A stretch of 64,000 nt of DNA from an uncultured Spirochaetaceae bacterium (GCA_964390045.1 CAYMGP010000001.1:28748-92747); one strand, 5' to 3'. Shown: positions 4,428 to 57,541, numbered from the stretch's first letter. Made by a program: numbers and translations. The notes: a model not told the origin generated them from the letters alone.

Positions 4428-4442
4428 ATCGGGGGAAAAGAT

Positions 4443-5156: not shown

Positions 5157-5166
5157 GGAGACGAAT

Positions 5167-6801
5167 ATGGGTGAGAAATTAGAAAGCCTGCCGCGTTTCA
5201 CACGGGCGCTGATGAAGAGCCATTTGCTGGCCTGCGGTTTTACCTACGAAGACACGAGCAGGCCGATCATCGCCATCGCCAACTCCTGGAACGAGTTCAA
5301 CCACGGGCACCTGCTGCAGCGTGATCTGGCTGAAAAGGTAAAGCAGGGGATCCGTTCGCGGGGGGGAATGCCTCTCGAGTTCAATACCATCGCGCCCTGT
5401 GATGCTCTGGCTCAAGGCTATATAGGGATGAATTATATCCTGCCGAGCCGGGAGATCATTGCCGACTCTGTAGAAGCAATGATTCGCTCGCAAAACATCG
5501 TCGACGGCATGGTGCTGATCTCCTCCTGCGACAAAATAACCCCGGGAATGCTCATGGCGGCGCTGCGCCTCGATATTCCCTGCATCCATATCTGCAGCGG
5601 CACCTGCGTACCGGCGATATCCTTTGCCGAGTCGAAGCGGATTCGTAAGGATTTCCTGGCCGGCGATATCGACGAACAGGAGATGGCTGAACGCAATGCA
5701 CTTCTGTATCCCCAACCCGGGATCTGCCCTTACATGGGCACGGCCAATACGATGGATATCTTCGCCGAAGCACTGGGGCTCGCTCTGCCCGGATCCGCCC
5801 TGATTCCCGCCGGAACAGGGGAGAGATACCGCTCGGCAGAACAAACAGGTGAAGCGGTAATGAAGCTGGTAGCCGCCGGGACCCGGCCGTCGAAAATCAT
5901 AAGCCGTGGTTCTGTGGATAATGCTTTGAAGGTGTTGGCGGCACTGTCTGGATCTCTGAATCACCTGCTTCATGTTCCAGCCATAGCCCGCGAGCTGGGT
6001 ATGAAGATCGACTTCGACTATATAGGCAGGATCAACGAGCAAACCCCGCTGCTCTGCGCCGTCAATCCCAACGGCGTGCACTCCACGGCCGATCTGCACA
6101 GGGCCGGCGGCATTCCCGCAGTCATGAAGGAACTGCATACCCTGCTCGACTTGAACACAGTCAATGTAGAGGGTAGGACTCTGAAGCGGATAATCAGCGA
6201 GGCCGGGGTCCTGAACCGGGAAGTCATTCATCCCTTCAGCGAACCTCTCGCTCCCGAGGGGGGCATCGTCATACTGAAGGGCAACATCGCCCGCGAGGGA
6301 GCGGCGGTACGTCTATCCACGATTCCCGAATCCATGATGCGATTCGCCGGTCCGGCTCAGGTTTTCGACGGCGAGGATCAAGCCACGGAAGCCATCGAGC
6401 AAGGCCGGGTCGAGGAAGGAAGCGTCGTCATCATTCGCTATGAGGGACCGAAGGGCGGCCCGGGAATGCGGGAAATGCATCGGGTTGCCGGGGCCCTGCG
6501 TACGATAGGCGAACGCTTTGCCGTGATCACCGACGGGCGCTTTTCAGGTGCCACCGGCGGTCTTTCCATCGGGTACTTGAGCCCCGAAGCAGCCAGTGAC
6601 GGGGAGCTCGCTATTGTGGCTGGCGGTGATCGGATCGAAATCGATGTTAAAAAACGAACACTCAACGTCTGTTTGAGCGATGAAGAGATAAAAAGCAGAA
6701 TGGAAAAGCATCGCTCGCCGAAAGGGCCTGGTGAAACAAGACTGCTCAGGAACTATGCCGGCAGAGTGAGCTCTACCTTCTCGGGAGCAATAAGCACATA
6801 A
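5167..6801 (+). CDS. IlvD/EDD-family dehydratase (sugar-acid dehydratase, e.g. aldonate dehydratase)
   Basis: 544 aa. Conserved ILVD/EDD motifs (ANSWNEFNHGH, SSCDKITPGMLMAA, GSALIPAGTGER). Its position between a GntR regulator and a DHDPS-type aldolase suggests a sugar-acid dehydratase rather than IlvD of branched-chain amino acid synthesis. Confidence 0.85.
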   Translation: MGEKLESLPRFTRALMKSHLLACGFTYEDTSRPIIAIANSWNEFNHGHLLQRDLAEKVKQGIRSRGGMPLEFNTIAPCDALAQGYIGMNYILPSREIIADSVEAMIRSQNIVDGMVLISSCDKITPGMLMAALRLDIPCIHICSGTCVPAISFAESKRIRKDFLAGDIDEQEMAERNALLYPQPGICPYMGTANTMDIFAEALGLALPGSALIPAGTGERYRSAEQTGEAVMKLVAAGTRPSKIISRGSVDNALKVLAALSGSLNHLLHVPAIARELGMKIDFDYIGRINEQTPLLCAVNPNGVHSTADLHRAGGIPAVMKELHTLLDLNTVNVEGRTLKRIISEAGVLNREVIHPFSEPLAPEGGIVILKGNIAREGAAVRLSTIPESMMRFAGPAQVFDGEDQATEAIEQGRVEEGSVVIIRYEGPKGGPGMREMHRVAGALRTIGERFAVITDGRFSGATGGLSIGYLSPEAASDGELAIVAGGDRIEIDVKKRTLNVCLSDEEIKSRMEKHRSPKGPGETRLLRNYAGRVSSTFSGAIST

Positions 6802-6849
6802 GCTTTTCTTGAAAAAGCATAAACAACAACCCAAGCGGAGGATACTAAA

Positions 6850-7749
6850 ATGAAAGCAAGAGAGTATAAAGGAATTATTCCTCCCATCCTGTCGTCATTC
6901 ACCAGGGATGGGGAGATCTATGAAAAGGGCATGAGGGAGATCATCAAGTTCACGCTGCCGCACGTCAACGGATACTATCCGATCGGCACATACGGCTGCG
7001 GACCGTTGATGTCTCAAGACGAACGAAAGAAGGCACTCGAGATCATCCTCGATGAGGTGGCGGGGAAAGTACCTGTGGTTGCCCACGTGGGTGCAGCGGG
7101 CACGAGACCGATGGTCGATCTGGCCAAGCATGCCAAGGCGGCCGGCGCACAGGGAGTCGGGGCGATTTCTCCCTTCTATGCCCCCCACCTGCCGGAAGAG
7201 AATCTCTACAGACACTTCGCCAGTTTGCTCGACGCGGTCAACGAAGAGGAGTTTCCTGTCTATGTGTACAACAACAGTCATTATTCACAGAACGTGATCA
7301 CCCCCAAGCTGTTGAAACGATTGGCCGATCACGGCCTGCGGGGCTGCAAGGACAGCTCTTTCGATTTGGTGAACTTCTTCTTTTTCCAGGACGCCGTGGC
7401 TGAGTATCCCGACTTCAATGTCATCGTGGGCACCGAAGCGATATTCATGGGTGCTTTTGAGGCCGGCGCGATCGGAATGGTGTGCGGCATGGGCAACATC
7501 TTTCCCGAATTGATGCAAAAAATGTATCAGGCCTTTATTTCCGGCGACAAGGATTCTGCCATGAAAATCCAGCGCCTGACGTTGAAATTGCGCGCCATCA
7601 CAAAAGCCGGGCCCACCGTACCGATCATGCATGAGATCCTGAGAATGAGAGGCGTGGATGCGGGCTACCCGCGCAGTCCGTTCATCGAAATTGACCAGGC
7701 TACGAAAAACAAAGTGAAGCAGGGCTTGCAGGATCTCGATCTGCTGTAG
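6850..7749 (+). CDS. DHDPS/NAL-family aldolase (2-keto-3-deoxy-sugar-acid aldolase-like)
   Basis: 299 aa. DapA-family fold motifs (GIIPPILSSF, GYYPIGTYGCGPLMSQDERKK, VVAHVGAAGTRPMVDLAKHA). It lies downstream of the dehydratase. Confidence 0.8.
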   Translation: MKAREYKGIIPPILSSFTRDGEIYEKGMREIIKFTLPHVNGYYPIGTYGCGPLMSQDERKKALEIILDEVAGKVPVVAHVGAAGTRPMVDLAKHAKAAGAQGVGAISPFYAPHLPEENLYRHFASLLDAVNEEEFPVYVYNNSHYSQNVITPKLLKRLADHGLRGCKDSSFDLVNFFFFQDAVAEYPDFNVIVGTEAIFMGAFEAGAIGMVCGMGNIFPELMQKMYQAFISGDKDSAMKIQRLTLKLRAITKAGPTVPIMHEILRMRGVDAGYPRSPFIEIDQATKNKVKQGLQDLDLL

Positions 7750-7754
7750 GACAG

Positions 7755-8600
7755 TCAGGCGTTCTTGGGAAACTCTTTCTGCCAAACATCGAGCTTTTCG
7801 GGTGGGATACCGCAGAAATCGCTGTCTCCCACCCAGCCGCCGTCGCAGGAGACGGTTGTACCTGTAACATAACTCGACAGATCCGAAGCGAGGAACAGAG
7901 CCACGGCGGCGATCTCTTCAGGCTCGGCCATGCGACCGAGAGGAGTTCGATAGCAAAGAGCCGCTTCGAGGGAGGGTTTGTCTTTTATCACCCGAAAGGT
8001 AGGCTTGGTGAGCGTGACCCCGGGGGCGATCGCATTGACCCGAATCCCGTGGGCCGCCCATTCGGAGGCAAGGCACTCTGTCATCATCTTTACACTCGCT
8101 TTGGCCGCGCAGTAACAGGAGTTGTCCGCGCATCCCACGATGCCCATTTTCGAACTCACGTTTATGATGCTGCCTCCTGTGGCCGCTTTCATTCGCGAGG
8201 CAGCCTCTCGACAGCCCAAGAAACAGCTTGTCACATTGATCCTGAAGAGCCGCTCCCACTCCTCTGCGCTCAGCTGAAAAGCCGGGGTGACCAGGTGCAG
8301 GCCGACATTGTTTACCCAGATATCAATTCCGCCCAGCTCGCTCTGCGCCGCCTCGGCAAGGGTTCCCGCTTGCGCCTCAACGGTCATGTCCGCGGCCATA
8401 ACCTTGGGCTCGACTCCCGCCGCATCGGTGATCTGCTTGACGGTTTCCTCGAGCTCCCGACGGGCTTCCTCATCTTGCCTGCGGCCGCTGTGGTTTACCA
8501 CTACTCTCGCGCCGGCCCGGGCGAATGTCACGGCGATGGCCCGCCCGATTCCGCGGGTTGAACCCGTCACCACTGCATTTTTTCCCGCAAGTAGTTTCAT
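7755..8600 (-). CDS. SDR-family oxidoreductase
   Basis: 281 aa. TGSTRGIGRAIA Rossmann motif and an SDR active-site region. Convergent with the aldolase gene, separated by only 5 bp. Confidence 0.8.
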   Translation of the reverse strand: MKLLAGKNAVVTGSTRGIGRAIAVTFARAGARVVVNHSGRRQDEEARRELEETVKQITDAAGVEPKVMAADMTVEAQAGTLAEAAQSELGGIDIWVNNVGLHLVTPAFQLSAEEWERLFRINVTSCFLGCREAASRMKAATGGSIINVSSKMGIVGCADNSCYCAAKASVKMMTECLASEWAAHGIRVNAIAPGVTLTKPTFRVIKDKPSLEAALCYRTPLGRMAEPEEIAAVALFLASDLSSYVTGTTVSCDGGWVGDSDFCGIPPEKLDVWQKEFPKNA

Positions 8601-8665: not shown

Positions 8666-9643
8666 CTACACGGAATAGAGGGGCCGGCCTTTGCTCAGCA
8701 TTTCATAAACATTGCGGGCCGTTTTACTTTTCAGGTCGGCAATCGATTCCTCGGAGTACCATCCCGTATGCCGCGTCACGAAGACCCGCTCTGGATACTT
8801 CATCACTACGGAGTTTTCATACTCCCCATCGGGACAATCCAGCACGTCGAGGCCCGCCATGGCTACCTTTCCGCTTTCCAGGGCCCGGCTCAGGGCCCGT
8901 TCATCGACCAGACCTCCCCTCGACGTGTTGATCAGGATCACACCGTCTTTCATCTGTCTGAATTTCTCCTCATTGAGCAGGTGATGCGTCTGCTCGGTGT
9001 GCGGGGCATGAACGGAAACCACATCGGAGCGTTTCAGGAGCTCCTCGAGCTGTAAAAACTCGATCCACGGATAACGGGACCGGTCGCTGAAAAACGGATC
9101 GTAGGCCAGCAGCTGCACCCCGAAGGAGCGCAGCTTCTCCGCCACCCGCTTGGCAATATTGCCGAAGGCGATAAGCCCGACGCTCAGGCCGGCAAAGCGA
9201 TAGAGCGGGCGAATACCTTCGTAGGACCACCGGCCTTGGTGCAGCAGGTTGTTCGCCAGCGTTACTTTGCGCAGACAGTTGAACATATGGGCTATGGCAG
9301 TATCGGACACCTCCTCTATGCAGTAGTCGGGAACATTGGCCACCGCGATGCCTTTTTCCTTGGCGGCCTTGACATCGATGGTATCCACACCGATTGCGTA
9401 GCGGCTGATGATGCGGCAGCGCTGCAGACCTGCGATGACCTTTCTTGAGATTTTTGCGAACTGCACGATCATGGCGTCGGCGTCAACGCCGTGCTCCAGG
9501 ACCGCCTCTTCGCTCTTCACCCCTCCTTCTACTATCTGTGTGCAGTCTACGATCTCTACATCGCCCAGCGCGTTCAGGATTTCCCGTTCCCTATCGATGT
9601 TCGGATAGTAGTAATCTGTAAACACGATTTTGTATTCGGCCAA
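8666..9643 (-). CDS. D-isomer-specific 2-hydroxyacid dehydrogenase family protein (CtBP/PGDH-like)
   Basis: 325 aa. The NAD-binding GLIAFGNIAKRVAEKL segment and the catalytic region (LINTSRGGLVDERAL, HTGW) are typical of the D-2-hydroxyacid dehydrogenase family. Confidence 0.85.
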   Translation of the reverse strand: MAEYKIVFTDYYYPNIDREREILNALGDVEIVDCTQIVEGGVKSEEAVLEHGVDADAMIVQFAKISRKVIAGLQRCRIISRYAIGVDTIDVKAAKEKGIAVANVPDYCIEEVSDTAIAHMFNCLRKVTLANNLLHQGRWSYEGIRPLYRFAGLSVGLIAFGNIAKRVAEKLRSFGVQLLAYDPFFSDRSRYPWIEFLQLEELLKRSDVVSVHAPHTEQTHHLLNEEKFRQMKDGVILINTSRGGLVDERALSRALESGKVAMAGLDVLDCPDGEYENSVVMKYPERVFVTRHTGWYSEESIADLKSKTARNVYEMLSKGRPLYSV

Positions 9644-9657: not shown

Positions 9658-10689
9658 CTAGGCCAGCAGGCCAGCCCGCCTGGCCAGCTCGAGGGCTCCG
9701 CTGATGCTGAGATTGTCGACCTGCTCGTCGTCGCTGATCTTGAGAATCTCACCGCTGAAGCCGCGTTTCTCCCTGAACAGCCGTTCATAAATCGAGCATC
9801 TACGGTCATTTCCTATCAATACAAAATCTGTCTTCAACGGAAAGCCGAGCGTCTCGAACTGATCGAGAGATCTCAGGTCTTCGGAGGCGATGGCGCCTTC
9901 TACAAAGAGCTTTCTTTCGTACCAGTGGGTATCGAGCAGGGTGTCGAGGAAGCGCGGCATCAGCATGGAGCGTAAGAAACCGGATCCCATTACCCAGTCA
10001 TACGATGCATCGAGCACCTCCGGATCTAGATAGCCGCTGTCGTCGAAATCATCGCCGGGCTGGATCGACTTTCCAATAGAAGTCTGCTTGACGAGCGCTT
10101 CGTAAACCTGGCCCGACAGGGTGGTGACGCTCCCCAGAACCTTGCCCGCCCTATCCAGAGCTACAAACTTCGTGTGGGAAGAGAGCACCACCACGGTCAG
10201 GGGCAGTTTTGGCGAATGGCTGGCCAGCAAACCGGCCACCTGGACTTCCTCACCCCGCATGAAGTCCAACCTGCCGACATCCGGTATCCGGGCGCTCTCG
10301 GGATCGTAGCGGTTTTTGATCCCCCTGATGAAATAGATCGGGATGTCAACGGGGAAAACAGCCGGGTCCCTCACCTCGACCAGATTGGCGGCCAACTCCT
10401 CCAACCCGGCCGGCGCCCAAAGATGGGGTATCTCCATAAGGCCGATCTCCGATGTGATCATGCCTGAGGAAATGACGAAGCGAACATCGATTAGCTGCAA
10501 AGCGGCCTTCTGCAAAGCGGAGTAAAACGTCTCTTTCAACCCCTGTTTCAAGGTTTCATTGCTGCCGCTGATGGCCGTGTCACGCACCCCCACCTTTCTG
10601 GCAGCTTTGGCGACAGTTTCTCCCTTCTCGTTTACGATGTAGACCCGGGAGTTGGTTGTTCCGCAGTCGATGGTAGCCAGGTACATCAC
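9658..10689 (-). CDS. 2-dehydro-3-deoxygalactonokinase (DgoK)-family sugar-acid kinase
   Basis: 343 aa. The N-terminal IDCGTTNSRVY aligns with the DgoK IDWG(S/T)TNLRAW motif. The second motif (VISSGMITSEIGLMEIPHLWAPA) matches the DgoK MAGMVGSxxGWxxxPYxxxPA region. Overlaps the upstream aldolase gene by 4 bp. Confidence 0.6.
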   Translation of the reverse strand: MMYLATIDCGTTNSRVYIVNEKGETVAKAARKVGVRDTAISGSNETLKQGLKETFYSALQKAALQLIDVRFVISSGMITSEIGLMEIPHLWAPAGLEELAANLVEVRDPAVFPVDIPIYFIRGIKNRYDPESARIPDVGRLDFMRGEEVQVAGLLASHSPKLPLTVVVLSSHTKFVALDRAGKVLGSVTTLSGQVYEALVKQTSIGKSIQPGDDFDDSGYLDPEVLDASYDWVMGSGFLRSMLMPRFLDTLLDTHWYERKLFVEGAIASEDLRSLDQFETLGFPLKTDFVLIGNDRRCSIYERLFREKRGFSGEILKISDDEQVDNLSISGALELARRAGLLA

Positions 10690-11573
10690 AGCACGTGCAA
10701 TTCTTCCAGCGCCCGTTTGATCTGGTCTTTTTCCTGCTTGCCAGCGGGAACGAAAGGAGATCGCGGGAAGGCCGAGATCACGCCGCGAATCTCGAGCATG
10801 GCGTAGACGGCCAGTTGGGTCGAACGGGCCAGATACATGACATCCCGCATCCTGTTGACCTTGAACTGTGTTTTTCTACAGGCTTCGAGATCCCCATCCA
10901 TCCCCTCTTTCCACATCTGTCCGCAGATCTCGGGGAAAGCGTTTCCCAGTCCGGGGATGTACGCTTCACCGCCCAGGGCCCGGGCTGACAGCCACATCGA
11001 TTCGGTGCCAAGGACGATATCCATGCCCTCGGCTGCCAGCTCCCGCATGTAGGTGGCGAAGGTCAGAATATCGAAGGTGGCGTCTTTGACGCCGTGGAGT
11101 CCCTTTTCACGCAGCTTCCTGATTGTCTGCAGCGCTATCGGATACCCGGAGAACTTCGGATTGTGATAGAGATATACAGGGTAGCCCTTGGGCACCGCCT
11201 CGAGCATGGCTCCGTAGAAAGCGAGCAGGGAATCCGCGTTGTGATGAAAGTAATACGGTCCCACAGCGGCTACGCCTTCACAGCCGATCGACTCGGCATG
11301 CCGGCACAACTCCACCGTATCCCGGGTATTTGTCGTACCCGCATGGGCGATGATCGGGATCTTTCCGTTTACAACCTTTACCGCCACTTCCGCCACCTGC
11401 TTGCGCTCCTGTACGTTCATCAAAGGACCGCTGCCGTAGGAACCGCAGATGTACAGGCCGTTTACCCGACCTTTCAAAAAATCGAGGAGTTTTTCCAAGT
11501 TGTGGATGTCTACATTACCCTCTTCATCGAAGGGGGTAATCATCGGTGGTACAACTCCTTTGAGCTTAAACAT
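10686..11573 (-). CDS. DHDPS/NAL-family aldolase (paralog A)
   Basis: 295 aa (MFKLKGVVPPMITPFDEEGNVD, GLYICGSYGSGP). Roughly 75% identical by eye to the ORF at 53930-54817. Confidence 0.85.
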   Translation of the reverse strand: MFKLKGVVPPMITPFDEEGNVDIHNLEKLLDFLKGRVNGLYICGSYGSGPLMNVQERKQVAEVAVKVVNGKIPIIAHAGTTNTRDTVELCRHAESIGCEGVAAVGPYYFHHNADSLLAFYGAMLEAVPKGYPVYLYHNPKFSGYPIALQTIRKLREKGLHGVKDATFDILTFATYMRELAAEGMDIVLGTESMWLSARALGGEAYIPGLGNAFPEICGQMWKEGMDGDLEACRKTQFKVNRMRDVMYLARSTQLAVYAMLEIRGVISAFPRSPFVPAGKQEKDQIKRALEELHVL

Positions 11574-11588: not shown

Positions 11589-12572
11589 TCAAGTTTTTCT
11601 TCCTTTCTTGCTGAAATAGATGCTGATCATGATAAGAATGATGACCCCGTTAGCGATGCGCCGGCCCGCCTCGGGCATCTTCATTACCGTGAGTATGCTC
11701 TCGAGCAGGACCAGGATCACTGCACCGGCGATCGTGCCGAGGTAGCCTCCCTTGCCTCCTGTCAGGGCGGTGCCCCCGATCACCACGGCTGTGATCGACC
11801 AGAGGGTGTACTCATTGCCGATGCCAAGGAACGCTGTGTGGGTGTATCCGGCCATCAGAGCGCCCGTCAACGCAGCGGTAGCTCCACTGATTGTATAAGC
11901 GAGGGTTTTTACACCCTTGACCCTTATACCTGACATGAAGGCCGCCCTCTCATTGGCTCCGACGTAGTACAGCTTCCTGCCGAAAACGCTGGACCTGAGA
12001 AAGATAATTACAAATATCCCCAGTACGAGCCAGATGAGCACCACGATAGGGATACCGAAAAGAACGGTTCCCACGGAGATGTAGCGCAGGATTGGGGAGG
12101 CGAGTCCCTTCGGAGCTCCCTGGCTGAATATGAGGGTCAAGCCCGTGACGAGCGATCCCACGGCAAGGGTCATGACGAGGGGCGAAATCTTCAGATGGGT
12201 CACGCCCAAACCGCTGAGGGTCCCGAAGAGCGCGCCTAAGGCCACGATAACCACCAGGACCCAAAACGTGTTCTCATTGAGACCGTTCATGAACATACAG
12301 GTGAATACATTTCCTGCAGTAATCAGCGGTCCGACGGACAAGTCGATTCCCGCCGCTAAAATGACGACGGTCTGGCCGATGGAAACGATGCCCAGAAACG
12401 AGGCTGTCCGCAGTACCGCGCCGACATGGTCGAAAGCCAAGAACCCGCTGGAAACGATCTCGCCGAATACAAACAAAGCGATGATCAAACCAAAGAGCAA
12501 CGCAATGATCTTATCTCCCAGAATTATGCCTACGCGATCCCAAATGCCCGTGCTGTTTCTCGTTTTCATCAT
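11589..12572 (-). CDS. ribose/monosaccharide-type ABC transporter permease
   Basis: 327 aa. Multi-pass hydrophobic protein with the RbsC/BPD family 2 signature (GIDLSVGP, GGTALTGGKGGYLG). Confidence 0.85.
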   Translation of the reverse strand: MMKTRNSTGIWDRVGIILGDKIIALLFGLIIALFVFGEIVSSGFLAFDHVGAVLRTASFLGIVSIGQTVVILAAGIDLSVGPLITAGNVFTCMFMNGLNENTFWVLVVIVALGALFGTLSGLGVTHLKISPLVMTLAVGSLVTGLTLIFSQGAPKGLASPILRYISVGTVLFGIPIVVLIWLVLGIFVIIFLRSSVFGRKLYYVGANERAAFMSGIRVKGVKTLAYTISGATAALTGALMAGYTHTAFLGIGNEYTLWSITAVVIGGTALTGGKGGYLGTIAGAVILVLLESILTVMKMPEAGRRIANGVIILIMISIYFSKKGRKT

Positions 12573-13576
12573 GCCTTTCCCCGTCCTGCACGAAGCTTGT
12601 TTGGCAACAGATAACGCCGCAGTACCTCCCTGACATCCAACCCTCCGCTGCTAGAGGTAATCGCCAGAGCGATGATCAGCACCAGTCCTTTGGCCACGTA
12701 CTGATAGAAGGTGGATATGGCGAGCAGATTCAAGATATTGTTGAGAAGGTGAAAGATATAGGCGCCGCCGATGATGCCTACAACACCACCGCGGCCGCCG
12801 ATCAGGCTGGTACCTGCTATTACAGATACCGCGATCGAGTTCAGAATGTACGGATCGCCAACAAGGGGATCTCCCGAATACATCCAGGCGGAAAGGAACA
12901 TCCCGGCAAAGGCACCCAACAGGCCACTGCAGCTGTAGACCCATATCTTCACCTTCTGTCCGGGAATGCCCGATTCGTAGGCGATCTCCTCGTTTCCCCC
13001 TATAGCGTAGATCGAACGTCCGAAGGCGCTGCGCTTCAATAGAAGATGAAAAACGACCACGAATCCCAAAAAGATAATGAGAGGCGCCGGCACAACTTTG
13101 AAGAGGTTTCCCGTCACCCCGAGAGCCACACCGAGCGAGACGCTTCCCCCCGGCACGGGAAGGATAAACAGGCTGAGTCCCTTCCAGATGGCGCCCGTGG
13201 CCAGAGTCACGATAAGAGGGGGGAAACCTCCCTTGGCGATTATGAATCCATTGGCCAGACCCAGAGCCAGACCGGCCGCCGGCGGTATCAGCAGCCAGAG
13301 GAAGATGTTCGGGACCTTATCCACCCACGGCAGGCTGACGGCGATCACATTGGTTAAGCCGATGATGCCCCCGATGGACAGGTCTATGCCGCCTGTAAGG
13401 ATGACCAGGGTCTGGGCGATTCCCGCAATGATGAGCGGAGTAATGCGGGTGAAAAGATTTACATTATTGTTCCAGGTGAAAAAGCTCGGTTCGATGAAGC
13501 AGGCAATCACATAGATCAGCACAAATATTGCGTAAACCGGCAGGTACATTCCCCAGCTGCGTTGTCTCTCGGTCAT
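12569..13576 (-). CDS. ribose/monosaccharide-type ABC transporter permease
   Basis: 335 aa (GGIDLSIGG, GGRGGVVGIIGGA). Its stop overlaps the next gene by 4 bp. Confidence 0.85.
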   Translation of the reverse strand: MTERQRSWGMYLPVYAIFVLIYVIACFIEPSFFTWNNNVNLFTRITPLIIAGIAQTLVILTGGIDLSIGGIIGLTNVIAVSLPWVDKVPNIFLWLLIPPAAGLALGLANGFIIAKGGFPPLIVTLATGAIWKGLSLFILPVPGGSVSLGVALGVTGNLFKVVPAPLIIFLGFVVVFHLLLKRSAFGRSIYAIGGNEEIAYESGIPGQKVKIWVYSCSGLLGAFAGMFLSAWMYSGDPLVGDPYILNSIAVSVIAGTSLIGGRGGVVGIIGGAYIFHLLNNILNLLAISTFYQYVAKGLVLIIALAITSSSGGLDVREVLRRYLLPNKLRAGRGKA

Positions 13577-15108
13577 GCTTGGCCCTCCTTCGTGAGCAGG
13601 TCGACGTTGCTCACAGAGGCTTTCATGATGTTCTCCTCGGTGATTTGCCCTACCTTCAGCTCGGCTGTCAGGTAACCGTGATTCATGATCAGCACCCGAT
13701 TGCAGAGCCCGATCAGCTCCAGCATGTCACTGGTGTTAAGGATTACAGCGACTCCCGCATCGGCCAGCCTGCGGATCAGTACGTAGATCTGCTGTTTCGT
13801 AGCTACATCGACCCCTTTCGTCGGTTCGAGCATCACAATTACTTTAGGATCGAATACCAGCCATTTACCGATTACCAGTTTTTGCATGTTGCCGCCGCTC
13901 AGTGACTGAGCCGTCTGCCTGGTAGAGGTGACGCGGATCGAAAGGTTATCGACGATATTGTCAATTTCCTCCCTCTCTTCTTTTTTCTTCACCCAACCGA
14001 ATTTCTTCCGTCTGTCGATCGTCGGCGCGGAAAGATTCTCGAGAGCCGAGAGGATAAGAAAAACTCCCTCCTCGCCACGGTTTTCGGGAATCAAGCCGAT
14101 ACCGGCTTTCATTGCTTGAATCGGATTCCTGGCATAGACCGGCCTGCCCAGCACCTCCATTTCCAGACGATCACAGCCTCCCAGACCGAAGATCGATTCC
14201 AGAAGCTCGAACTGGCCCTGACCCTGCAACCCTCCGATTCCCAGCACTTCACCCTTATAAAGGTTAAAGGCCACCTCGTGCTGCGAGCGTTTCAAGACTC
14301 CCGAGTATTCGAAAATCCTTTCTTTTTCACTTGGTGAGGGCTTCTCTGGAAATATTTCTGAAAAATCTCTTCCCACCATCGAAGAAATCAGTTTATCCTC
14401 TGTGAAATCGCTCGCCTTTTCCGTTGTAACCCGGCCGCCGTCTTTCATGACCGTGATTCTGTCTGAAACCTTGAGAACCTCGTCGAGACGATGGGAGATA
14501 AAAACTACAGCTTTACCCTGCTTCTTCAAGTCTTCAAGGATTCTGAATAGGAGCGCTACCTCGTCTTTCGAGAGCGGTGCGGTCGGTTCGTCGAATATGA
14601 TCAGATCGGGATCTTCGGAAAGAACTTTGGCGATTTCCACCATCTGCCTCTGGGCCATTGGAAGCGAGCTCACCAGGATGTCCGATCCGATCTCGACTCC
14701 AATCTCGGTGAGGATCTCCCGACACTTACGTCTCGTCTCATCCCAATCAATCAAACCGAGCGATTTTTTGGGCCAGACCCCCATCGAGATGTTCTCCGCA
14801 ACTGTCAACTCGGGCAGAAGTGACAGCTCCTGGTAGACCACCCCGATCCCTGCGTTGCGTGCGTCCGCGTAGTTGCGAAATTTCTTTTCCTCACTGCGAA
14901 TGAGTATCTTCCCGCTGTCCGGGGTGTGGACACCGGCAATCACTTTTATCAATGTGCTCTTGCCGGCGCCATTTTCACCTACCAGACCATGCACCTCGCC
15001 ACCCCGGCACTGAAAATCCACCCGATCTACGGCCAGGGTACCTGGAAAAGACTTGACGATTTCCCGTGCCTCTAAAAGGGGTGCGGAGGCATTTGCCGTT
15101 TCAAGCAT
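13573..15108 (-). CDS. sugar ABC transporter ATP-binding protein (two fused ABC domains, RbsA/MglA-like)
   Basis: 511 aa. Two Walker A/signature sets (GENGAGKSTL ... LSGGNMQK) are present. Confidence 0.9.
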   Translation of the reverse strand: MLETANASAPLLEAREIVKSFPGTLAVDRVDFQCRGGEVHGLVGENGAGKSTLIKVIAGVHTPDSGKILIRSEEKKFRNYADARNAGIGVVYQELSLLPELTVAENISMGVWPKKSLGLIDWDETRRKCREILTEIGVEIGSDILVSSLPMAQRQMVEIAKVLSEDPDLIIFDEPTAPLSKDEVALLFRILEDLKKQGKAVVFISHRLDEVLKVSDRITVMKDGGRVTTEKASDFTEDKLISSMVGRDFSEIFPEKPSPSEKERIFEYSGVLKRSQHEVAFNLYKGEVLGIGGLQGQGQFELLESIFGLGGCDRLEMEVLGRPVYARNPIQAMKAGIGLIPENRGEEGVFLILSALENLSAPTIDRRKKFGWVKKKEEREEIDNIVDNLSIRVTSTRQTAQSLSGGNMQKLVIGKWLVFDPKVIVMLEPTKGVDVATKQQIYVLIRRLADAGVAVILNTSDMLELIGLCNRVLIMNHGYLTAELKVGQITEENIMKASVSNVDLLTKEGQA

Positions 15109-15171: not shown

Positions 15172-16197
15172 TCAGCGCTCGAACATCTTTTTGACCCGGT
15201 CCTCGGGAAGCTTGGAGTTGCACCAGAAGCTGTCGGGAAGATCCGGCTTCACGTACTGAGCGAGAGTATCAGATGTGATGGTCGGAATGGGAATGAACAC
15301 CTCTTTGTCCACCGACTTTCCCTCAAGTGCATCAAGGGCCACTTCCATGGCCTTGGCGCTGCACCACGTAGGCATACTGGTCGAGATGGAGTCCCAACCC
15401 GGACACGTATCCTGGGTTTCCTGCCAGATCTTCAAGAAACCATTGCCGTCCTCACCCGTGACGGGCGGAGGGCACTCGCCTCTTTCCAGATAAGCCTCCA
15501 CAACGGCCTCGGACATGGCACCGCCCTGCGACCAGACTCCGGCGATCGTCGGGTAAGCTGCCAGAAGGTTCTCCATCGCTCTCTTGGCTTTGGCGTAGTC
15601 CCAATCGGCGTACACCGTCTGAATGATGTTCACATCGGGATACCTGTCGAAAACGTTCTTGGCGCCTTCGAAACGCTCGGCACTGATGGCCGTTCCTTTC
15701 ATGCCGTTGAAAGCGATGATATCGCCTTTTCCACCCAGCACCTTCACCAACCATTCACCCTGAACGCGGCCGAACTCTTTCTGGTCCACGATTACGTGGG
15801 CGGTGACATTGTCCGTGTAGACAAGATTGTCGAAGTCGACGACCACGATTCCAGCGCTCATCGCTTTGCCCACTACGGGTACAAGAGCCTTGGGATTGGC
15901 TGCGGTTATCAGGATGGCGTCGACCTTCTTGGCGATAAGGTCTTCGATATCCGCGATCTGTTTTTCCACGGAGCCCTCCGCTTCGGTAACGATCAGCTCC
16001 CGGACAAGATCCGAATGCTGCTCTGCGCCGTACTTCGCCTCTTCGACCATTTGTACGCGCCAGGAGTTGCCCAGGCTGAAATTGCTCAGGCCTATGACAT
16101 ACCCTCCTGCTTCTGCTCCCTCCTGCTCGCCGACGGCCATTCCAAAACCGGCGGCTACGAGGAGCAGGGCAAGTCCGATTAAGATTCTCTTAATCAT
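15172..16197 (-). CDS. periplasmic sugar-binding protein (RbsB-like substrate-binding protein)
   Basis: 341 aa. N-terminal signal peptide (MIKRILIGLALLLVAAGFGMA) and a type I periplasmic binding fold. Confidence 0.85.
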   Translation of the reverse strand: MIKRILIGLALLLVAAGFGMAVGEQEGAEAGGYVIGLSNFSLGNSWRVQMVEEAKYGAEQHSDLVRELIVTEAEGSVEKQIADIEDLIAKKVDAILITAANPKALVPVVGKAMSAGIVVVDFDNLVYTDNVTAHVIVDQKEFGRVQGEWLVKVLGGKGDIIAFNGMKGTAISAERFEGAKNVFDRYPDVNIIQTVYADWDYAKAKRAMENLLAAYPTIAGVWSQGGAMSEAVVEAYLERGECPPPVTGEDGNGFLKIWQETQDTCPGWDSISTSMPTWCSAKAMEVALDALEGKSVDKEVFIPIPTITSDTLAQYVKPDLPDSFWCNSKLPEDRVKKMFER

Positions 16198-16263: not shown

Positions 16264-16929
16264 TCACAGGTTTTCTATATCGGGAAAGGCTACCGCCCGA
16301 CAGGGTGCGCCCTCTCTTCCTCCAAGTTTTATGGGAAACGCACTGATCAAAAAATAGCGATCCTCGGGAAGCAGCGACAGATTGCACAGGTTCTCCACCA
16401 GCGGCACATCGGCGCCTAACAGGAGGTGGTGTTTTTCACTGTTCTTTGTCGCTACCGGATCGATCGCCGGCGCATCCGTCATATAGCAGCGGATCTTCCG
16501 GTCGATGAGCCACTGCAGCAGTTCTTCGCTGGGGACCGGAAAACGCTTGTTGTACTCAGCCGTTTCGGCGTAGCGTTCGATTCCCGTAGCCAGCACAAAG
16601 ATTGTGTCTTCCTCCAGATCGAATCCGCTTTCAAGCACTTCATCAAGCTGTATTTCCTGGCCATGGAGATCCCGCCCAAAGCGAAAAACTCTGGCCCGGC
16701 CGAAGAACCTCTCGATCGCCACTTCATCGATCGTGGACATTTCATCCTTGAAGTGCTTCGGAGCATCCACATGGGTTCCCGTATGCACCATCATCGTGAA
16801 CTTGGTCAGGTTTGCTCCTTCGGAGTTCGCCCTGTACACCCACTGGAACACGGGTCTCTCCATACCCGGATACACGACCATGTCCCCGCTGATTCTATAC
16901 GACAGATCCACCATCCTATGCTGCTTCAT
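16264..16929 (-). CDS. cyclase-family protein (kynurenine formamidase-like metal hydrolase, PF04199-type)
   Basis: 221 aa. Carries the diagnostic HTGTHVDAPKH motif. Confidence 0.75.
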   Translation of the reverse strand: MKQHRMVDLSYRISGDMVVYPGMERPVFQWVYRANSEGANLTKFTMMVHTGTHVDAPKHFKDEMSTIDEVAIERFFGRARVFRFGRDLHGQEIQLDEVLESGFDLEEDTIFVLATGIERYAETAEYNKRFPVPSEELLQWLIDRKIRCYMTDAPAIDPVATKNSEKHHLLLGADVPLVENLCNLSLLPEDRYFLISAFPIKLGGREGAPCRAVAFPDIENL

Positions 16930-18143
16930 TTCCAGCCTTCGCTTTCGGTAATCTTACAGGTTTTGAGCACGACGTCCGGTATCGCCGGTCCCGGACAGCA
17001 TCCGGGGATATGCACGGTTCGCCGATCCTGCTGAAAGGTTTTCGGCGTACAGTCGCCGATTACAAAATAAGGTCCCTGCTCGAGATGCTTTTCGAAATTG
17101 AGGTCCACTGCATTGAAGCCCAACATGAACGTTGGCCTGCCTACATTGTCGTTGATCCTCTCCCATATGCCGTCTCTCTGCCAAAACAGGGCCGGTCCCA
17201 TGAACCAGGCAAAACAACCCTCGCACATACCGCCCAGTACGATGTTGCAGGGAAAGCGGTTGTAGAGAACCTCGAGCGGTTTCTCCACCTCGATGGCCAG
17301 TCTCTCTATGGAAGGTCCGAGCACCTGGATCTTGTTTCTATTGATTTCCCCGACACCTTCCAGATGAGCCGTCCATGGAAAAACCAGATCTCCCTTGTGT
17401 ATATGCAGAAGATCCGCTGCAATAGAATCGAGCGCAACGGGATCGTTGGAAGAAAGCAGAACTCCGAGATAGCGCGGACGGGAAAGGTCCGGACCGTCAC
17501 CCTCGCCGACGATCACCGCGTCACCGAAGCACAGCTGCTCGGGCATAGCCCGATGCAGCTCCGCTACCAATTTTGGCAATCGGGTTTGGTGGTGCTGCAG
17601 CCTCAGGTCCTGCGAAAGAAACCCCACCCAGTTCTTCACGCAGCAGGTCATCGAGCCGATTCTGTGGGTTTTCAAGCGCGCGAAGTTGATAAGAAAATCC
17701 GCTTCCATCGCCTTGCGCGGAACGGTCAGACTGCGCACTATATCGCTTTCCGGGAGCTCGAGGACCATCCGCTGCCCCTCGGCATCGATATCGACGAGGA
17801 TACCCCCGGCTTCGGACACCGCTTTGTCCATACCCGCTGCCTGAAACGTTTCCCGCGATCTCATATACCCGGCAGAGGAATCACCTACGTAAACCTTGTC
17901 GACACCGCGCTCGAGCAGAATCTCGATCAGGGCGGCGACAAATCTCGGCTCGGTGGTGATGCTTTCTCTCGCCGTAGCCCCGATTACCACGTTCGGCTTC
18001 AAGAAAACAACGCCCCCGGATGGAATCGAGACGCCCGTTTTCTCCAGCTTCTCCAGAGAGCTTCTCACCATAACGGCGAAATCAACCTCACCGTATTCAG
18101 CTGTTTGCGCTTTGCTGATGCAGACGATGGGTTCTGCTTTCAT
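16926..18143 (-). CDS. DUF362 domain-containing protein
   Basis: DUF362 signature segments FLKPNVVIGATARESITTEPRFV and INFARLKTHRIGSMTCCVKNWVG. The start is taken at the ATG at 18141-18143 (MKAEPIV...), which forms an ATGA overlap with the stop of the upstream cyclase. The ORF-track start at 18188 would overlap the cyclase by 49 bp. Confidence 0.6.
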   Translation of the reverse strand: MKAEPIVCISKAQTAEYGEVDFAVMVRSSLEKLEKTGVSIPSGGVVFLKPNVVIGATARESITTEPRFVAALIEILLERGVDKVYVGDSSAGYMRSRETFQAAGMDKAVSEAGGILVDIDAEGQRMVLELPESDIVRSLTVPRKAMEADFLINFARLKTHRIGSMTCCVKNWVGFLSQDLRLQHHQTRLPKLVAELHRAMPEQLCFGDAVIVGEGDGPDLSRPRYLGVLLSSNDPVALDSIAADLLHIHKGDLVFPWTAHLEGVGEINRNKIQVLGPSIERLAIEVEKPLEVLYNRFPCNIVLGGMCEGCFAWFMGPALFWQRDGIWERINDNVGRPTFMLGFNAVDLNFEKHLEQGPYFVIGDCTPKTFQQDRRTVHIPGCCPGPAIPDVVLKTCKITESEGWK

Positions 18144-18820
18144 GTCTCTGCCACCAAGTTTACAGGAGAAGCATCCAGACCTTTCCACCGCAGCGGAAAA
18201 GCGTAGATCCGCTTGATCCGCTTGCCAACGATCTTTCCCAGGTTGACATCCTCGTAGATCAACAGGGGCCTCGTGTCGTACAGCTCTCCGCTGAGAAGCG
18301 TTTTGTGTACCACGAAATCCTTCTGCGGTCCTTGCAGGGGATTCTCGATGCTAAGAGTGTCAATGGCCAGCGCTTTCAAGTCGGGAAAGTTGGTTCTGAG
18401 AAAGCGTGCCGCCTCTTCGCTCAGTGCCGGAAAATTGTCGCAATAGCGTTCCTTGTCTTCCCGCTTTTTCCAGTAACCGCTTTCCAGAAGCACGATGTCG
18501 CAGCTCTCCAGCTCGGTCGAGTGGCTCTGTATATCAGGCAACGTGAACAGCTCGCCCTTGCCTAGTTGCTTTTCAATCAACAGCGGCCGTTCGTATACGA
18601 AATTTTCTATAGGAAGCTGATCTATCGTCAACCCCCCGTTCCAGAAGTGAAACGGTGCGTCTACGTGTGTTCCGCTGTGTAGATAATGGTGGATAATCGT
18701 TGTGTTTGCCTCTCCCCCCCGGCTCATACGAGAATGGGGAACTACCCTATCCTCGGGGCTCCCAGGAAAGACGGGCATCTTTTCGTGTAGCTCGTATCCC
18801 AGTTCAATAAACATCGTCAT
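18140..18820 (-). CDS. cyclase-family protein (second paralog)
   Basis: 226 aa, with the HSGTHVDAPFH motif. Confidence 0.75.
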   Translation of the reverse strand: MTMFIELGYELHEKMPVFPGSPEDRVVPHSRMSRGGEANTTIIHHYLHSGTHVDAPFHFWNGGLTIDQLPIENFVYERPLLIEKQLGKGELFTLPDIQSHSTELESCDIVLLESGYWKKREDKERYCDNFPALSEEAARFLRTNFPDLKALAIDTLSIENPLQGPQKDFVVHKTLLSGELYDTRPLLIYEDVNLGKIVGKRIKRIYAFPLRWKGLDASPVNLVAET

Positions 18821-18841: not shown

Positions 18842-19708
18842 TCAATACTTCAAATACGAAAGGGACTGCCGTGTCTTCTTGAGCTTATCCCAAGACGGCG
18901 ATCCCTGTCGTAAGCTAATCGAAACGAACAGGGTTTCAATAATCGCCAGCTGCACAATCCGAGTGACCAGCGCGTCTGTTAAATAATTCATCTCTTCGGT
19001 GACCGTAGTAATACACACGTCAGCGATGCTTCCCAAGGGGCTGTTGGCGAAACCTGTCAGTGCAATCACTTTTGCAGGAGGACGGGCGTTTTCCACGGGA
19101 ATTACCACATCTTTGCTTTCTCCCGAATAGGAGATACAGAAAATAACATCACCTTCTCGCGGATCAGAAAGAGTGACTGCATTTATATGGGAATCCATGC
19201 AGAAGTAGCAGGGCAATCCGATCCTTGTGAACTTGAAAAAGGCATCATATGCGATGGCCCCGGAGGATGCGTATCCGAGGAAGATAATTCGCTTGGCTCC
19301 TTCGATCAGTTCGACCGCTCTCTGCAGGGTTTCATCTTTTACAGCCACCAGATTCTCATGGAGCGTCTGCACTGCTCCATGAAAAATCTTTTTCTTGATA
19401 TCTTTGATCTCGTCCTGCACGGTGATGTCTTCGTAGGTATGATAAAAGGAGGTTCCGGCCAACTCCGTGGCCAAAGTTACCTTGAAGTCGTGATATCCCG
19501 AAAAACCGAGAGTTTTATAAAACTTCACGATAGAGGATTCGCTGCGAACTCCCGTTTGTCCGGCCAGTTGGGTAATCGACATCTTGATCACATCGTATGG
19601 GCTGCCGATCACGTATTTGGCAATCCGTCGTTGAAGAGGCGTCATATTGACTGACTTCCGCCGAATGACGTTCAATACAGGCACCGCTTCCAAGGAGTTG
19701 ACTACCAT
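18842..19708 (-). CDS. MurR/RpiR-family transcriptional regulator (HTH + SIS domain)
   Basis: 288 aa. N-terminal RpiR-type HTH (TPLQRRIAKYVIGSPYDVIKMSITQLAGQTGVRSESSIVKF) and a C-terminal SIS phosphosugar-binding domain (IIFLGYASSGAIA, FCISYSGESKD). Confidence 0.85.
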   Translation of the reverse strand: MVVNSLEAVPVLNVIRRKSVNMTPLQRRIAKYVIGSPYDVIKMSITQLAGQTGVRSESSIVKFYKTLGFSGYHDFKVTLATELAGTSFYHTYEDITVQDEIKDIKKKIFHGAVQTLHENLVAVKDETLQRAVELIEGAKRIIFLGYASSGAIAYDAFFKFTRIGLPCYFCMDSHINAVTLSDPREGDVIFCISYSGESKDVVIPVENARPPAKVIALTGFANSPLGSIADVCITTVTEEMNYLTDALVTRIVQLAIIETLFVSISLRQGSPSWDKLKKTRQSLSYLKY

Positions 19709-19977
19709 AATCGATTCACCCAGAAATAGTAAAAAATTAAAAAAATAATTTTGTTAATTTTAGCGGAATAAACCCTCTTTGTCAAGAAAAATTTTTGTAT
19801 TTGTCAGCTTAACAGTATTCTATGCTTCTTGTCGCGACTTCTCCCACCGGGAATAAGGGGTGACAAACTACGGTCTTTCGGGTGTTGCATCAATGGGTGA
19901 CAGATATCTAACAATGAACGTGATTTTCAAAGGTATGCTATAATTATGGTTTAAGCAATTTTTGAAGGAGGAAGCGA

Positions 19978-54817: not shown

Positions 54818-54855
54818 AGTTTCCTCCTAAACGGTATTTTCTTTGTTTTAAAAAA

Positions 54856-54885
54856 CCCACGTTTCTTGTTCGTGGATTAACTTCT
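54856..54885 (-). terminator. weak rho-independent terminator/attenuator downstream of the AOR gene
   Basis: Read on the minus strand: CCACG-aacaagaaa-CGTGG hairpin followed by GTTTTTTAAAAC. The stem is short (5 bp), so it may only attenuate read-through into the aldolase gene. Confidence 0.35.
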
Positions 54886-54931
54886 CAGCATAATGAGGAC
54901 CAATTCTCAAATCTTATCTGAAGTGTCGGTT

Positions 54932-56875: not shown

Positions 56876-56884
56876 CGTTCCTCC

Positions 56885-57157
56885 TCACATGCAGACGACG
56901 ATCGTGTTTTTATGCTTCAACTCCTGCAGGCTGATCGCATTGTAGGGGCACACCTTCAGGCAGGCCGGATCGCCACCACAGAAATCACAGTCCAACGGCA
57001 TAATCATAGGCACCGTGTGTCCTGTCTGGGCGTCGCGATTCATGCGGATCACGGACTTCTCCGGATTGAACACCCCGGCCCTGGCAAAGGAGCAGGCCAG
57101 CTGGCAGCTGCGGCATCCCCGGCATTTGCTGGCATTGATGTACAGAATACTGGTCAT
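56885..57157 (-). CDS. 4Fe-4S ferredoxin-type small protein (putative AOR electron acceptor)
   Basis: 90 aa. Two Cys clusters (CRGCRSCQLAC; CDFCGGDPACLKVCP). Confidence 0.7.
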   Translation of the reverse strand: MTSILYINASKCRGCRSCQLACSFARAGVFNPEKSVIRMNRDAQTGHTVPMIMPLDCDFCGGDPACLKVCPYNAISLQELKHKNTIVVCM

Positions 57158-57159
57158 GC

Positions 57160-57540: not shown

Positions 57541-57541
57541 G

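Follow-up and report, generated by a model that had tools for sequence, protein, structure and literature searches.

The cyclase-DUF362-cyclase triplet and its conservation

We analysed a stretch of 64,000 nucleotides from an uncultured Spirochaetaceae bacterium (GCA_964390045.1, CAYMGP010000001.1:28748-92747), called the window below, in which two genes for cyclase-family proteins are packed around a gene for a DUF362 protein and a third cyclase gene heads a second operon. The G+C content of the whole window is 55.6%, and its nearest relatives are Anaerolineae metagenome bins; judged by these relatives, the source would probably be a Chloroflexota anaerobe. With positions counted from the first letter of the window, the four genes under study are the following.

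18140..18820, minus strand: CYC2, cyclase-family metallohydrolase, upstream member of the triplet (PF04199; open reading frame, ORF, of 226 amino acids, aa)
16926..18143, minus strand: DUF362 protein, 405 aa (PF04015, 153.2 bits against a gathering cut-off of 24)
16264..16929, minus strand: CYC1, cyclase-family metallohydrolase, 221 aa, downstream member of the triplet (PF04199)
57542..58264, minus strand: CYC3, cyclase-family metallohydrolase, 240 aa, heading the second operon (PF04199)

The first-pass annotation of this DNA had named three cyclases with an HxGTHxDxPxH metal site at these positions, and this is borne out both by the motifs (HTGTHVDAPKH in CYC1, HSGTHVDAPFH in CYC2 and HTGTHIDVPFH in CYC3) and by PF04199 scores of 92.4, 87.8 and 75.6 bits, respectively, against a gathering cut-off of 23.1. 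The ATGA overlaps that it had described on either side of the DUF362 gene can both be read in the sequence: the CYC2 stop and the DUF362 start share ATGA at 18143-18140 ('gagacATGAaag'), and the DUF362 stop and the CYC1 start share it at 16929-16926 ('ggaaATGAagc'). The mechanically called DUF362 ORF, which begins with a GTG at 18188, is overlong; the true start is the ATG at 18143, giving the 405-aa product, and an identical 405-aa protein is present in public gene calls. The CYC2 start is probably the second ATG, at 18814 (MFIEL..., 224 aa), because the JGI gene call, the GAGGA spacing and the orthologs agree on it. A scan of the sequence revealed no convincing terminator inside the triplet operon.

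Close relatives of the DUF362 protein number more than 120 at 60-73% identity and are spread across phyla. Nineteen loci from one-genome-per-species contigs, together with further metagenome contigs, were compared ORF by ORF with the window proteins. Three pairs of contigs proved to be duplicates (in our numbering L004 = L011, L006 = L014 and L031 = L023), and L001-L003 are other assemblies of the window organism; with L025, whose DUF362 gene is fragmented, left out, 16 independent loci were counted in which the DUF362 ortholog is at least 59% identical and the flanks are long enough. A cyclase gene adjoins DUF362 in all 16, which come from Anaerolineae, Spirochaetota, Desulfobacteraceae, Vecturithrix, Stahlbacteria, Atribacterota and Chitinispirillaceae, so the pairing proposed earlier is conserved beyond the window. 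The complete CYC2-DUF362-CYC1 order is present in 10/16 (Anaerolineaceae, Spirochaetota, Desulfobacteraceae and unnamed bins), and four loci have CYC1 without an adjacent CYC2 (Vecturithrix, Stahlbacteria, one Spirochaetota bin and one Atribacterota bin, the last with CYC2 5 kb upstream, where it precedes a second transporter). CYC1 lies immediately 3′ of DUF362 in all 13 independent loci where the contig continues, except L010, which has CYC2-DUF362 with no CYC1 downstream; the contigs of L016 and L024 stop directly after DUF362, with CYC2 present, and those of L021 and L022 begin at DUF362, with CYC1 next. The junctions within the triplet are overlaps or gaps of up to about 30 nt in most loci and of about 150 nt in two. 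Even the farthest ortholog of the CYC1 clade (50% identity) sits in a complete triplet, and L029, whose DUF362 protein is only 41% identical, retains the order transporter-FGGY-DUF362-CYC1-like cyclase-DHDPS. DUF362 genes at 35-38% identity lack a cyclase neighbour, although the loci around them are still of the sugar or 2-hydroxyacid kind.

The triplet is nearly always linked to a CUT2 transporter, a DGOK-family kinase, a 2-hydroxyacid dehydrogenase and the DHDPS-family aldolase DHDPS_a, with RpiR, ILVD/EDD, a second DHDPS, FGGY, SDR, VOC and a genuine LarA homolog as frequent accessories. In the window, 59 ORFs were scanned with Pfam, and the minus strand from 19708 to 7755 is a single compact gene series, RpiR through SDR, facing a divergent accessory set.

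19757..19785, minus strand: promoter-like site TTGACA-17-TAAAAT upstream of rpiR (11/12 consensus matches)
18842..19708, minus strand: RpiR-family regulator, HTH_6 plus SIS sugar-phosphate-binding domain (Pfam)
15172..16197, minus strand: periplasmic sugar-binding protein, Peripla_BP_4, CUT2 type (Pfam and synteny)
11589..15108, minus strand: CUT2 ABC transporter, whole (Pfam and synteny)
13573-15108, minus strand: CUT2 double ATPase (Pfam)
12569-13576 and 11589-12572, minus strand: two CUT2 permeases (Pfam)
10686..11573, minus strand: DHDPS_a, DHDPS-family (class I pyruvate) aldolase (Pfam/NCBIfam models)
9658..10689, minus strand: DGOK-family (2-keto-3-deoxy-galactonokinase-like) kinase, conserved beside DHDPS_a (Pfam)
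8666..9643, minus strand: D-isomer-specific 2-hydroxyacid dehydrogenase, member of the core cluster (domain models and synteny)
7755..8600, minus strand: SDR, accessory (NCBIfam 'glucose 1-dehydrogenase' subfamily model, 220.2 bits against a cut-off of 215)
2727..7749, plus strand: divergent accessory gene set, whole (domain models)
2727-4427, plus strand: FGGY kinase (Pfam)
4443-5156, plus strand: GntR/FCD regulator (Pfam)
5167-6801, plus strand: ILVD/EDD sugar-acid dehydratase (Pfam)
6850-7749, plus strand: second DHDPS aldolase (Pfam)

The RpiR gene adjoins the triplet in most related loci, and the divergent set (FGGY, GntR, ILVD/EDD and second DHDPS) recurs in L006, L007 and L013. The closest solved relatives of the binding protein are ribose/allose-type monosaccharide binders of the CUT2 type, none close enough to name the ligand. 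In summary, CYC2-DUF362-CYC1 is a conserved, tight gene module of strict anaerobes that lies within a monosaccharide-type catabolic operon for a CUT2-imported compound.

As to transcription of the series, the unit may possibly begin at the promoter-like site at 19757..19785, which is a consensus match only, such sites being no commoner across the region than in shuffled sequences. An 8-bp hairpin (CCUGUUUCC/GGGAACAG) lies on the minus strand at 16220-16238, between CYC1 and the binding-protein gene, and is followed on its 3′ side by an A-rich and then a U-rich stretch; its stability does not exceed that of shuffles (z = 0.78), and it is probably not regulatory. The two FGGY ORFs of the window (2727-4427 and 52395-54239) encode, as mechanically called, 566 and 614 aa, of which the Pfam domains cover only the part from residue 70 and residue 107 onwards, respectively. 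As the second ORF also runs into the DHDPS gene at 53930-54817, both true starts probably lie well downstream. In the Atribacterota locus (L017, 4444-11856) and the Stahlbacteria locus (L012, 1-7427), a second CUT2 transporter lies directly upstream of DUF362, in L017 between CYC2 and DUF362. These second transporters are homologous (39-45% identity) to the transporter of the CYC3 locus in the window, which hints that the two CUT2 transporter types serve related substrates.

Three cyclase subfamilies and a second operon

Besides the motif, all three window cyclases have the distal His and Glu ligands, and the six ligands of the binuclear metal site (H, H, D, H + H, E) are kept in 15/15 CYC1, 14/14 CYC2 and 7/7 CYC3 orthologs aligned. 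Because all six metal-binding residues of the kynurenine formamidase KynB are thus present in every ortholog, the cyclases are very probably active metalloenzymes and not degenerate scaffolds. Each paralog belongs to a bounded group: CYC1 orthologs share at least 48% identity, and beyond them the identity of the rest of the family falls sharply, to 43% and then to at most 36%; CYC2 orthologs are 49-67% identical; and CYC3 orthologs form a discrete group of about 100 clusters at 50-98% identity. A neighbour-joining tree of 57 sequences, a distance method with 100 bootstraps that are approximate owing to a few saturated distances, recovered CYC1, CYC2 and CYC3 as monophyletic in 86/100, 84/100 and 63/100 replicates, with CYC2 and CYC3 (34% mutual identity) as sister clades in 61/100.

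JGI names the cluster cyclases automatically as 'arylformamidase' or 'kynurenine formamidase', and they do share with KynB (PDB 4CO9/4CZ1, 4COB) the PF04199 fold, a similar length, the HxGTHxDxPxH motif and the distal His/Glu of a binuclear Zn site. That they are ordinary kynurenine formamidases of tryptophan catabolism is nevertheless extremely improbable. Against the arylformamidase equivalog model TIGR03035, CYC1, CYC2 and CYC3 score 96.7, 63.8 and 34.3 bits, with a cut-off of 223.05; CYC1 groups with KynB in 0/100 bootstraps; and the three form clades of their own. KynB stands with kynA and kynU, whereas the window cyclases stand in sugar operons, a setting conserved in every genome examined. 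The 59 window ORFs scanned (the remaining small ORFs lie outside the scan) and nine Pfam-annotated related neighbourhoods contain no member of the tryptophan 2,3-dioxygenase or kynureninase families, which agrees with the earlier remark that a tryptophan-degradation context is lacking. On this sequence evidence, the automatic label is very probably wrong at the level of function. These three clades are routinely annotated in this way in metagenomes, so that Anaerolineae, Spirochaetota, Desulfobacteraceae, Atribacterota and others would be credited with tryptophan catabolism by mistake.

The cyclases form new, sharply bounded subfamilies within a hydrolase fold that is already known, and their metabolic setting is new for that fold. 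Their solved relatives, at 35-75 bits, are KynB, which is the best solved match for CYC1 and whose scores with the three paralogs are no higher than about 75, 36 and 35 bits, and uncharacterised 'metal-dependent hydrolases'; isatin hydrolases match them weakly (E 1e-8 to 1e-3). The PF04199 scaffold is known to hydrolyse cyclic amide, ester, lactone and phosphotriester bonds, the last in the cyclase-phosphotriesterase C-PTE (PMC5341072, PMC6117287, PMC12135135), and its characterised members include the trans-dienelactone hydrolase of P. reinekei MT1 and the carboxylesterase MGS0169 (PMC5341072). In the latter two the motif is modified to QxxxQxDxxxH, unlike the classical His motif retained in the window proteins. 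Neither these two enzymes nor isatin hydrolase or C-PTE are tied to sugar operons or to DUF362.

By analogy with these enzymes, the role that would need the fewest assumptions for the cyclases is hydrolysis of an ester or lactone, which is a reasonable hypothesis. In its favour, the family consists of hydrolases, a dienelactone hydrolase and a carboxylesterase among them; the clusters have no known lactonase (none of SMP-30, amidohydrolase_2, 6PGL or MBL type in four Pfam-annotated triplet loci); and a glucose-1-dehydrogenase-like SDR is present in the window cluster. The cyclases themselves match PF04199 only, and none of the known lactonase families in Pfam (SMP-30/gluconolactonase, amidohydrolase_2, 6-phosphogluconolactonase, UlaG-type MBL); if they are lactonases, they would be an additional, analogous family, and we found no literature pairing 'cyclase family protein' with 'lactonase'. 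A dehydratase-like or an amidase role would fit the contexts about as well. In the amidase case, the cyclases would act like formamidases or isatin hydrolases, removing an N-formyl or N-acyl group or opening a lactam or amide on a sugar derivative before aldol cleavage. The best-characterised relatives are indeed amidases, with KynB the top solved match for CYC1; isatin hydrolase turns a cyclic amide into an alpha-keto acid (PMC6117287); and the DHDPS family includes N-acetylneuraminate lyase. However, the annotated clusters contain no deaminase, amino-sugar or N-acetyl gene of the NagA/NagB or NanE/NanK type, and CUT2 binders typically take neutral monosaccharides, the closest solved relatives here binding ribose and allose. 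We therefore regard an amidase role as quite unlikely.

CYC3 belongs to a different conserved operon, a point absent from the first-pass annotation, which had correctly placed all three cyclases beside sugar ABC transporters, aldolases or RpiR regulators: RpiR, a CUT2 transporter and DHDPS aldolases lie beside the triplet, and a second CUT2 transporter and a DHDPS aldolase beside CYC3. The genes around CYC3 are as follows.

53930..57561, minus strand: genes downstream of CYC3, whole (domain models; conserved order)
57160-57561, minus strand: VOC/glyoxalase-fold protein (domain model)
56885-57157, minus strand: 2x[4Fe-4S] ferredoxin (domain model)
54932-56875, minus strand: tungsten-type aldehyde:ferredoxin oxidoreductase, AFOR (domain model)
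53930-54817, minus strand: DHDPS aldolase of the CYC3 locus (domain model)
58368..63122, minus strand: second CUT2 ABC transporter, upstream of CYC3 (Pfam)
58368-59330 and 59327-60277, minus strand: permeases of the second transporter
60290-61795, minus strand: ATPase of the second transporter
61851-63122, minus strand: binding protein of the second transporter

The DHDPS gene is followed downstream by an FGGY kinase gene, two SDR genes and one for a 2-hydroxyacid dehydrogenase. L026-L028 (one bin each of Anaerolineae and Deltaproteobacteria, and a third metagenome contig) repeat the order cyclase-(VOC)-ferredoxin-AFOR-DHDPS, and there the operon is divergent from GntR-FGGY-binding protein-ATPase-permeases. 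With sugar-operon contexts conserved in both the triplet and the CYC3-type loci, the recurrent, carbohydrate-specific role suggested earlier for the cyclases is supported. The DHDPS aldolases at 10686-11573 and 53930-54817, one per cyclase locus and 43 kb apart, are 75% identical over their full length, which points to a recent duplication or to a shared specificity linking both systems; the third DHDPS gene, at 6850-7749, is more distant from this pair.

The VOC gene overlaps CYC3 by 20 nt (57542-57561). VOC genes also stand beside the DUF362 triplet clusters of L005 and L035, and the protein may, from these positions, belong to both cyclase systems.

The DUF362 protein: fold, residues and relation to LarA

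Fold calls for the DUF362 protein rest on a fold comparison of a structural model and on profile-profile alignment. The N-terminal domain (about residues 1-290) is predicted to adopt the N-domain fold of the lactate racemase LarA, in agreement with Pfam clan CL0471, which holds both DUF362 and the LarA N-domain and for which reason DUF362 has been taken as the outgroup in LarA trees (PMC11770544). The C-terminal domain (about 295-405, with about 90 residues matched) is modelled with the fold of NuoB and of the [NiFe]-hydrogenase small subunit (MbhJ 7.4, HycG 6.9, MvhG 6.8, NDUFS7 and others). Four cysteines (C307, C310, C365 and C382) are invariant in 38 DUF362 orthologs, and the four-Cys motif is present in most family members that retain the C-domain; we take its CxxC...GxC...GC(C/P)P pattern to resemble the hydrogenase proximal-cluster motif. 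The likeness to NuoB and the hydrogenase small subunit therefore lies in a modelled proximal [4Fe-4S]-binding fold, with no PDB match at the sequence level, and whereas those subunits pair with a NiFe or NuoD subunit, the DUF362 domain is fused to a LarA-like domain instead. Sequence searches against the PDB with the single protein, with an ortholog profile (chance matches only) and with the C-terminal 116 residues gave nothing useful.

Residues were matched to LarA through hhalign, and LarA residues were numbered by aligning the L. plantarum enzyme with a LarA homolog encoded nearby. A first alignment of the ortholog profile with LarA (E 7e-4, probability 26%) paired H160 and K170 with His174 and Lys184, and a broader one with 151 DUF362 sequences reached E 6e-5 locally and 85% probability globally. 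The proposed correspondences, all from hhalign, are these.

DUF362 H160: LarA His174, catalytic His
DUF362 K170: LarA Lys184, the lysine bearing the nickel-pincer cofactor
DUF362 H185: LarA His200, Ni ligand
DUF362 A91: LarA His108, second catalytic His, not in DUF362 (Ala/Gly there)
DUF362 K49-P50-N51: LarA Ser70-Ser71-Asp72, including the ribose-binding Asp72

H160, K170 and H185 are invariant in the DUF362 orthologs, and among 150 representatives (clusters of at most 50% identity) K170 is kept in 143, H185 in 137 and H160 in 126; counted against about 147 members, K170 and H185 are near-invariant family-wide. In LarA, an Asp binds the ribose of the cofactor and an Arg or Lys its phosphate (PMC12611868); LarA Arg75 aligns with the non-conserved DUF362 position 59, with the invariant K49 close by. 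Hence, the DUF362 protein may be viewed as the cofactor-holding half of LarA with one of its two catalytic histidines, in which the substrate half has been replaced by a predicted Fe-S domain of the electron-transfer type. Compared with the LarA superfamily (PDB 5HUQ, 7S91, 9EIA, 9Q3J, 4NAR), the likeness would lie in the fold and in the aligned cofactor-binding Lys/His/His triad; the differences are that DUF362 has no PF09861 match and no His108 counterpart, and carries a four-Cys, NuoB-like domain where LarA has its substrate-binding C-domain. Since the second histidine, the LarA C-domain and a match to the LarA Pfam model are all lacking, the DUF362 protein is better described as a LarA relative that may work partly like LarA than as a member of the LarA family.

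The first-pass annotation had called DUF362 proteins uncharacterised. As regards function this stands, since no structure or function for any member was found in the PDB or in a literature represented mostly by titles and abstracts; yet the protein is not featureless, given the modelled LarA fold and hydrogenase-type Fe-S domain. As PF04015 comprises more than 8,000 clusters at 50% identity, the fold and the aligned triad offer a concrete cofactor hypothesis for a large family, namely that its members carry nickel-pincer nucleotide (NPN), or a cofactor akin to it, together with a [4Fe-4S] cluster.

Genuine LarA homologs, in which His108, His174, Lys184 and His200 are all invariant, lie within a few kb of DUF362 in 10 independent loci.

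L005, 7708-9015: LarA homolog
L006, 6054-7337: LarA homolog
L007, 5772-7055: LarA homolog
L009, 6669-7952: LarA homolog
L017, 12753-14027: LarA homolog
L018, 19480-20793: LarA homolog
L020, 19477-20754: LarA homolog
L021, 9770-11053: LarA homolog
L033, 2967-4254: LarA homolog
L034, 6234-7526: LarA homolog

Because a canonical LarA with all four catalytic residues is present, the organisms of these loci very likely make NPN. The LarA homologs often adjoin a 2-hydroxyacid dehydrogenase, and their proximity to DUF362 may reflect a shared cofactor or a shared 2-hydroxyacid substrate; no canonical LarA was found among the window ORFs scanned. An aldo-keto-reductase-type protein, NphT, has been reported as a nickel-pincer user other than LarA (PMC13524815), and single-histidine LarA homologs tied to carbohydrate metabolism are under active study (PMC12611868). 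In the parts of the literature examined, we found no proposal of DUF362 as a nickel-pincer user. The cofactor hypothesis for DUF362 bears on the question of which enzymes besides LarA and NphT use this cofactor.

With one LarA-type histidine and an Fe-S exit route, the DUF362 protein would be suited to one-way hydride abstraction, as in a dehydrogenase, and not to racemisation. Alternatively, it could isomerise or epimerise its substrate as LarA does, with no net redox change, or be an Fe-S protein with a purely structural or regulatory function; the cyclases would then act independently, and the gene packing would reflect co-regulation only. All known LarA-fold enzymes are racemases or epimerases, some more distant DUF362 genes lie in sugar loci without a cyclase (L031, L033 and L034), and no fusion proteins were found. 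Two-faced racemisation is, however, at odds with the single aligned histidine, the Fe-S domain of the hydrogenase/complex I electron-transfer type is conserved family-wide, and the pairing with CYC1 holds down to 41% DUF362 identity and in seven lineages, which makes a redox-neutral role unlikely.

A proposed entry module for sugar oxidation

The downstream genes, which encode a kinase of the KDGal-kinase family, KD(P)G-type aldolases and in many cases ILVD/EDD, suggest a semi-phosphorylative Entner-Doudoroff or De Ley-Doudoroff-type route. From the type of transporter, the substrate would be neutral and monosaccharide-like. Because the downstream genes are of this type, the triplet is best placed before the kinase and the aldolase. 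We propose that the module would carry out the first, pre-aldolase steps, converting an imported sugar or its lactone into a sugar acid or 2-keto sugar acid, which would then be used by the linked DGOK kinase, 2-hydroxyacid dehydrogenase and DHDPS aldolase. The cyclases would cleave the ester (lactone) bond at their metal centre, and the DUF362 protein would take a hydride from the C-H/OH carbon, either C1 of an aldose or C2 of an aldonate. The acceptor would be a lysine-tethered cofactor of the nicotinic-acid type, possibly the nickel-pincer nucleotide, assisted by the single LarA-type catalytic His; the electrons would leave through the [4Fe-4S] cluster to ferredoxin, whereas LarA racemases return the hydride. 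In the CYC3 operon, a parallel system on this view, the Fe-S redox role would fall to ferredoxin and AFOR. We put the probability of this full model, an oxidation and hydrolysis entry module feeding DGOK, 2-hydroxyacid dehydrogenase and DHDPS, at about 35%.

A comparison of minimal operons is consistent with ferredoxin-linked oxidation in both systems. L029 consists of transporter, FGGY, DUF362, cyclase and DHDPS, and L027 of transporter, FGGY, cyclase, ferredoxin, AFOR and DHDPS; DUF362 in the former stands where ferredoxin and AFOR stand in the latter, and this position, by analogy, together with the 75%-identical aldolases, supports the parallel. The proposal also resembles the aldose 1-dehydrogenase and lactonase pairs of oxidative sugar pathways (De Ley-Doudoroff, Dahms/Weimberg and non-phosphorylative Entner-Doudoroff, as in XylB/XylC followed by ILVD/EDD and YjhH/YagE-type DHDPS): ILVD/EDD, a DGOK-type KDGal kinase and a DHDPS-type KD(P)G aldolase are present in the window loci, a redox gene adjoins a hydrolase gene at the head of the operon, as in XylB/XylC-type pairs, and the oxidation of an aldehyde by AFOR recalls the archaeal non-phosphorylative Entner-Doudoroff pathway. 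In contrast, the XylB/XylC-type systems are NAD(P)-linked and use SMP-30 or amidohydrolase_2 lactonases, whereas the window system would, judged by gene position, be Fe-S/ferredoxin-linked, with cyclase-fold hydrolases and strict-anaerobe hosts. The module would mark a step, widespread among uncultured anaerobes, with which a sugar or sugar-acid pathway begins and which is apparently linked to Fe-S proteins and ferredoxin where aerobes use NAD(P) dehydrogenases.

Several observations weigh against the proposed oxidation and hydrolysis module. For the cofactor, no larB, larC or larE was found in the window ORFs scanned or in any Pfam-annotated locus; the alignment with LarA is weak at the sequence level, with the 26% of the first hhalign run and no match of an HMM to the PDB; the ribose-binding Asp aligns with an Asn (the invariant N51), and the phosphate-binding Arg has no conserved counterpart; Pfam matches neither the LarA substrate-binding C-domain (PF21113) nor Lar_N, and only PF04015; and model confidence is low at residues 160-163. 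For a complex, which is argued from gene packing, no DUF362-cyclase fusion and no PF04199 in an N-terminal extension were found when the six longest sequences among the 150 best DUF362 relatives, and four of normal length, were scanned with Pfam, one of the extensions carrying a GH1 fragment. For the pathway, the complete-looking clusters of L004, L005 and L035 have no recognisable sugar-acid dehydratase, so a lactonase and a dehydrogenase alone could not reach a 2-keto-3-deoxy acid, and AFOR oxidises an aldehyde straight to the acid, which leaves no lactone for CYC3.

The last two points favour the idea that the cyclases are metal-dependent lyases, that is, sugar-acid dehydratases making the 2-keto-3-deoxy acid, with DUF362 or AFOR plus ferredoxin oxidising the aldose to the aldonate. 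Compact clusters with DHDPS and DGOK in L004, L005, L035, L027 and L029 lack ILVD/EDD and the enolase-type, UxuA and UxaA dehydratases, the acid made by AFOR gives CYC3 nothing to hydrolyse in the simple scheme, and CYC1 is the constant partner of DUF362 while CYC2 is dispensable in some genomes. Nevertheless, no PF04199 protein is known to be a dehydratase, those characterised all being hydrolases (formamidases, isatin hydrolases, esterases, dienelactone hydrolases or phosphotriesterases), and ILVD/EDD adjoins the cluster in the window and in several other loci; a dehydratase role is therefore improbable.

The oxidation and hydrolysis module can be extended to a broader proposal, which we offer as speculative and rather unlikely. 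DUF362 would be a second, Fe-S-containing nickel-pincer branch, in which exchange of the substrate domain turned the hidden hydride shuttle of LarA into a net, ferredoxin-linked dehydrogenation. In a complex with the two cyclases, it would form a sugar-oxidation entry module of strict anaerobes, combining oxidation with lactone opening, dehydration or both.

Elsewhere in the window, the region 40168-46299 encodes a TRAP DctP-type binding protein, a molybdenum hydroxylase of the xanthine-dehydrogenase type in three subunits (FAD_binding_5, Fer2_2 and MoCoBD) and an Amidohydro_1 enzyme, and from its gene content looks like a locus for N-heterocycle or purine-type degradation. A NUBPL/Mrp-type Fe-S cluster carrier ATPase is encoded at 28711-29538, a Memo-like protein with an N-terminal extension of about 110 residues at 35520-36797, and a P-type cation ATPase at 36952-39810.

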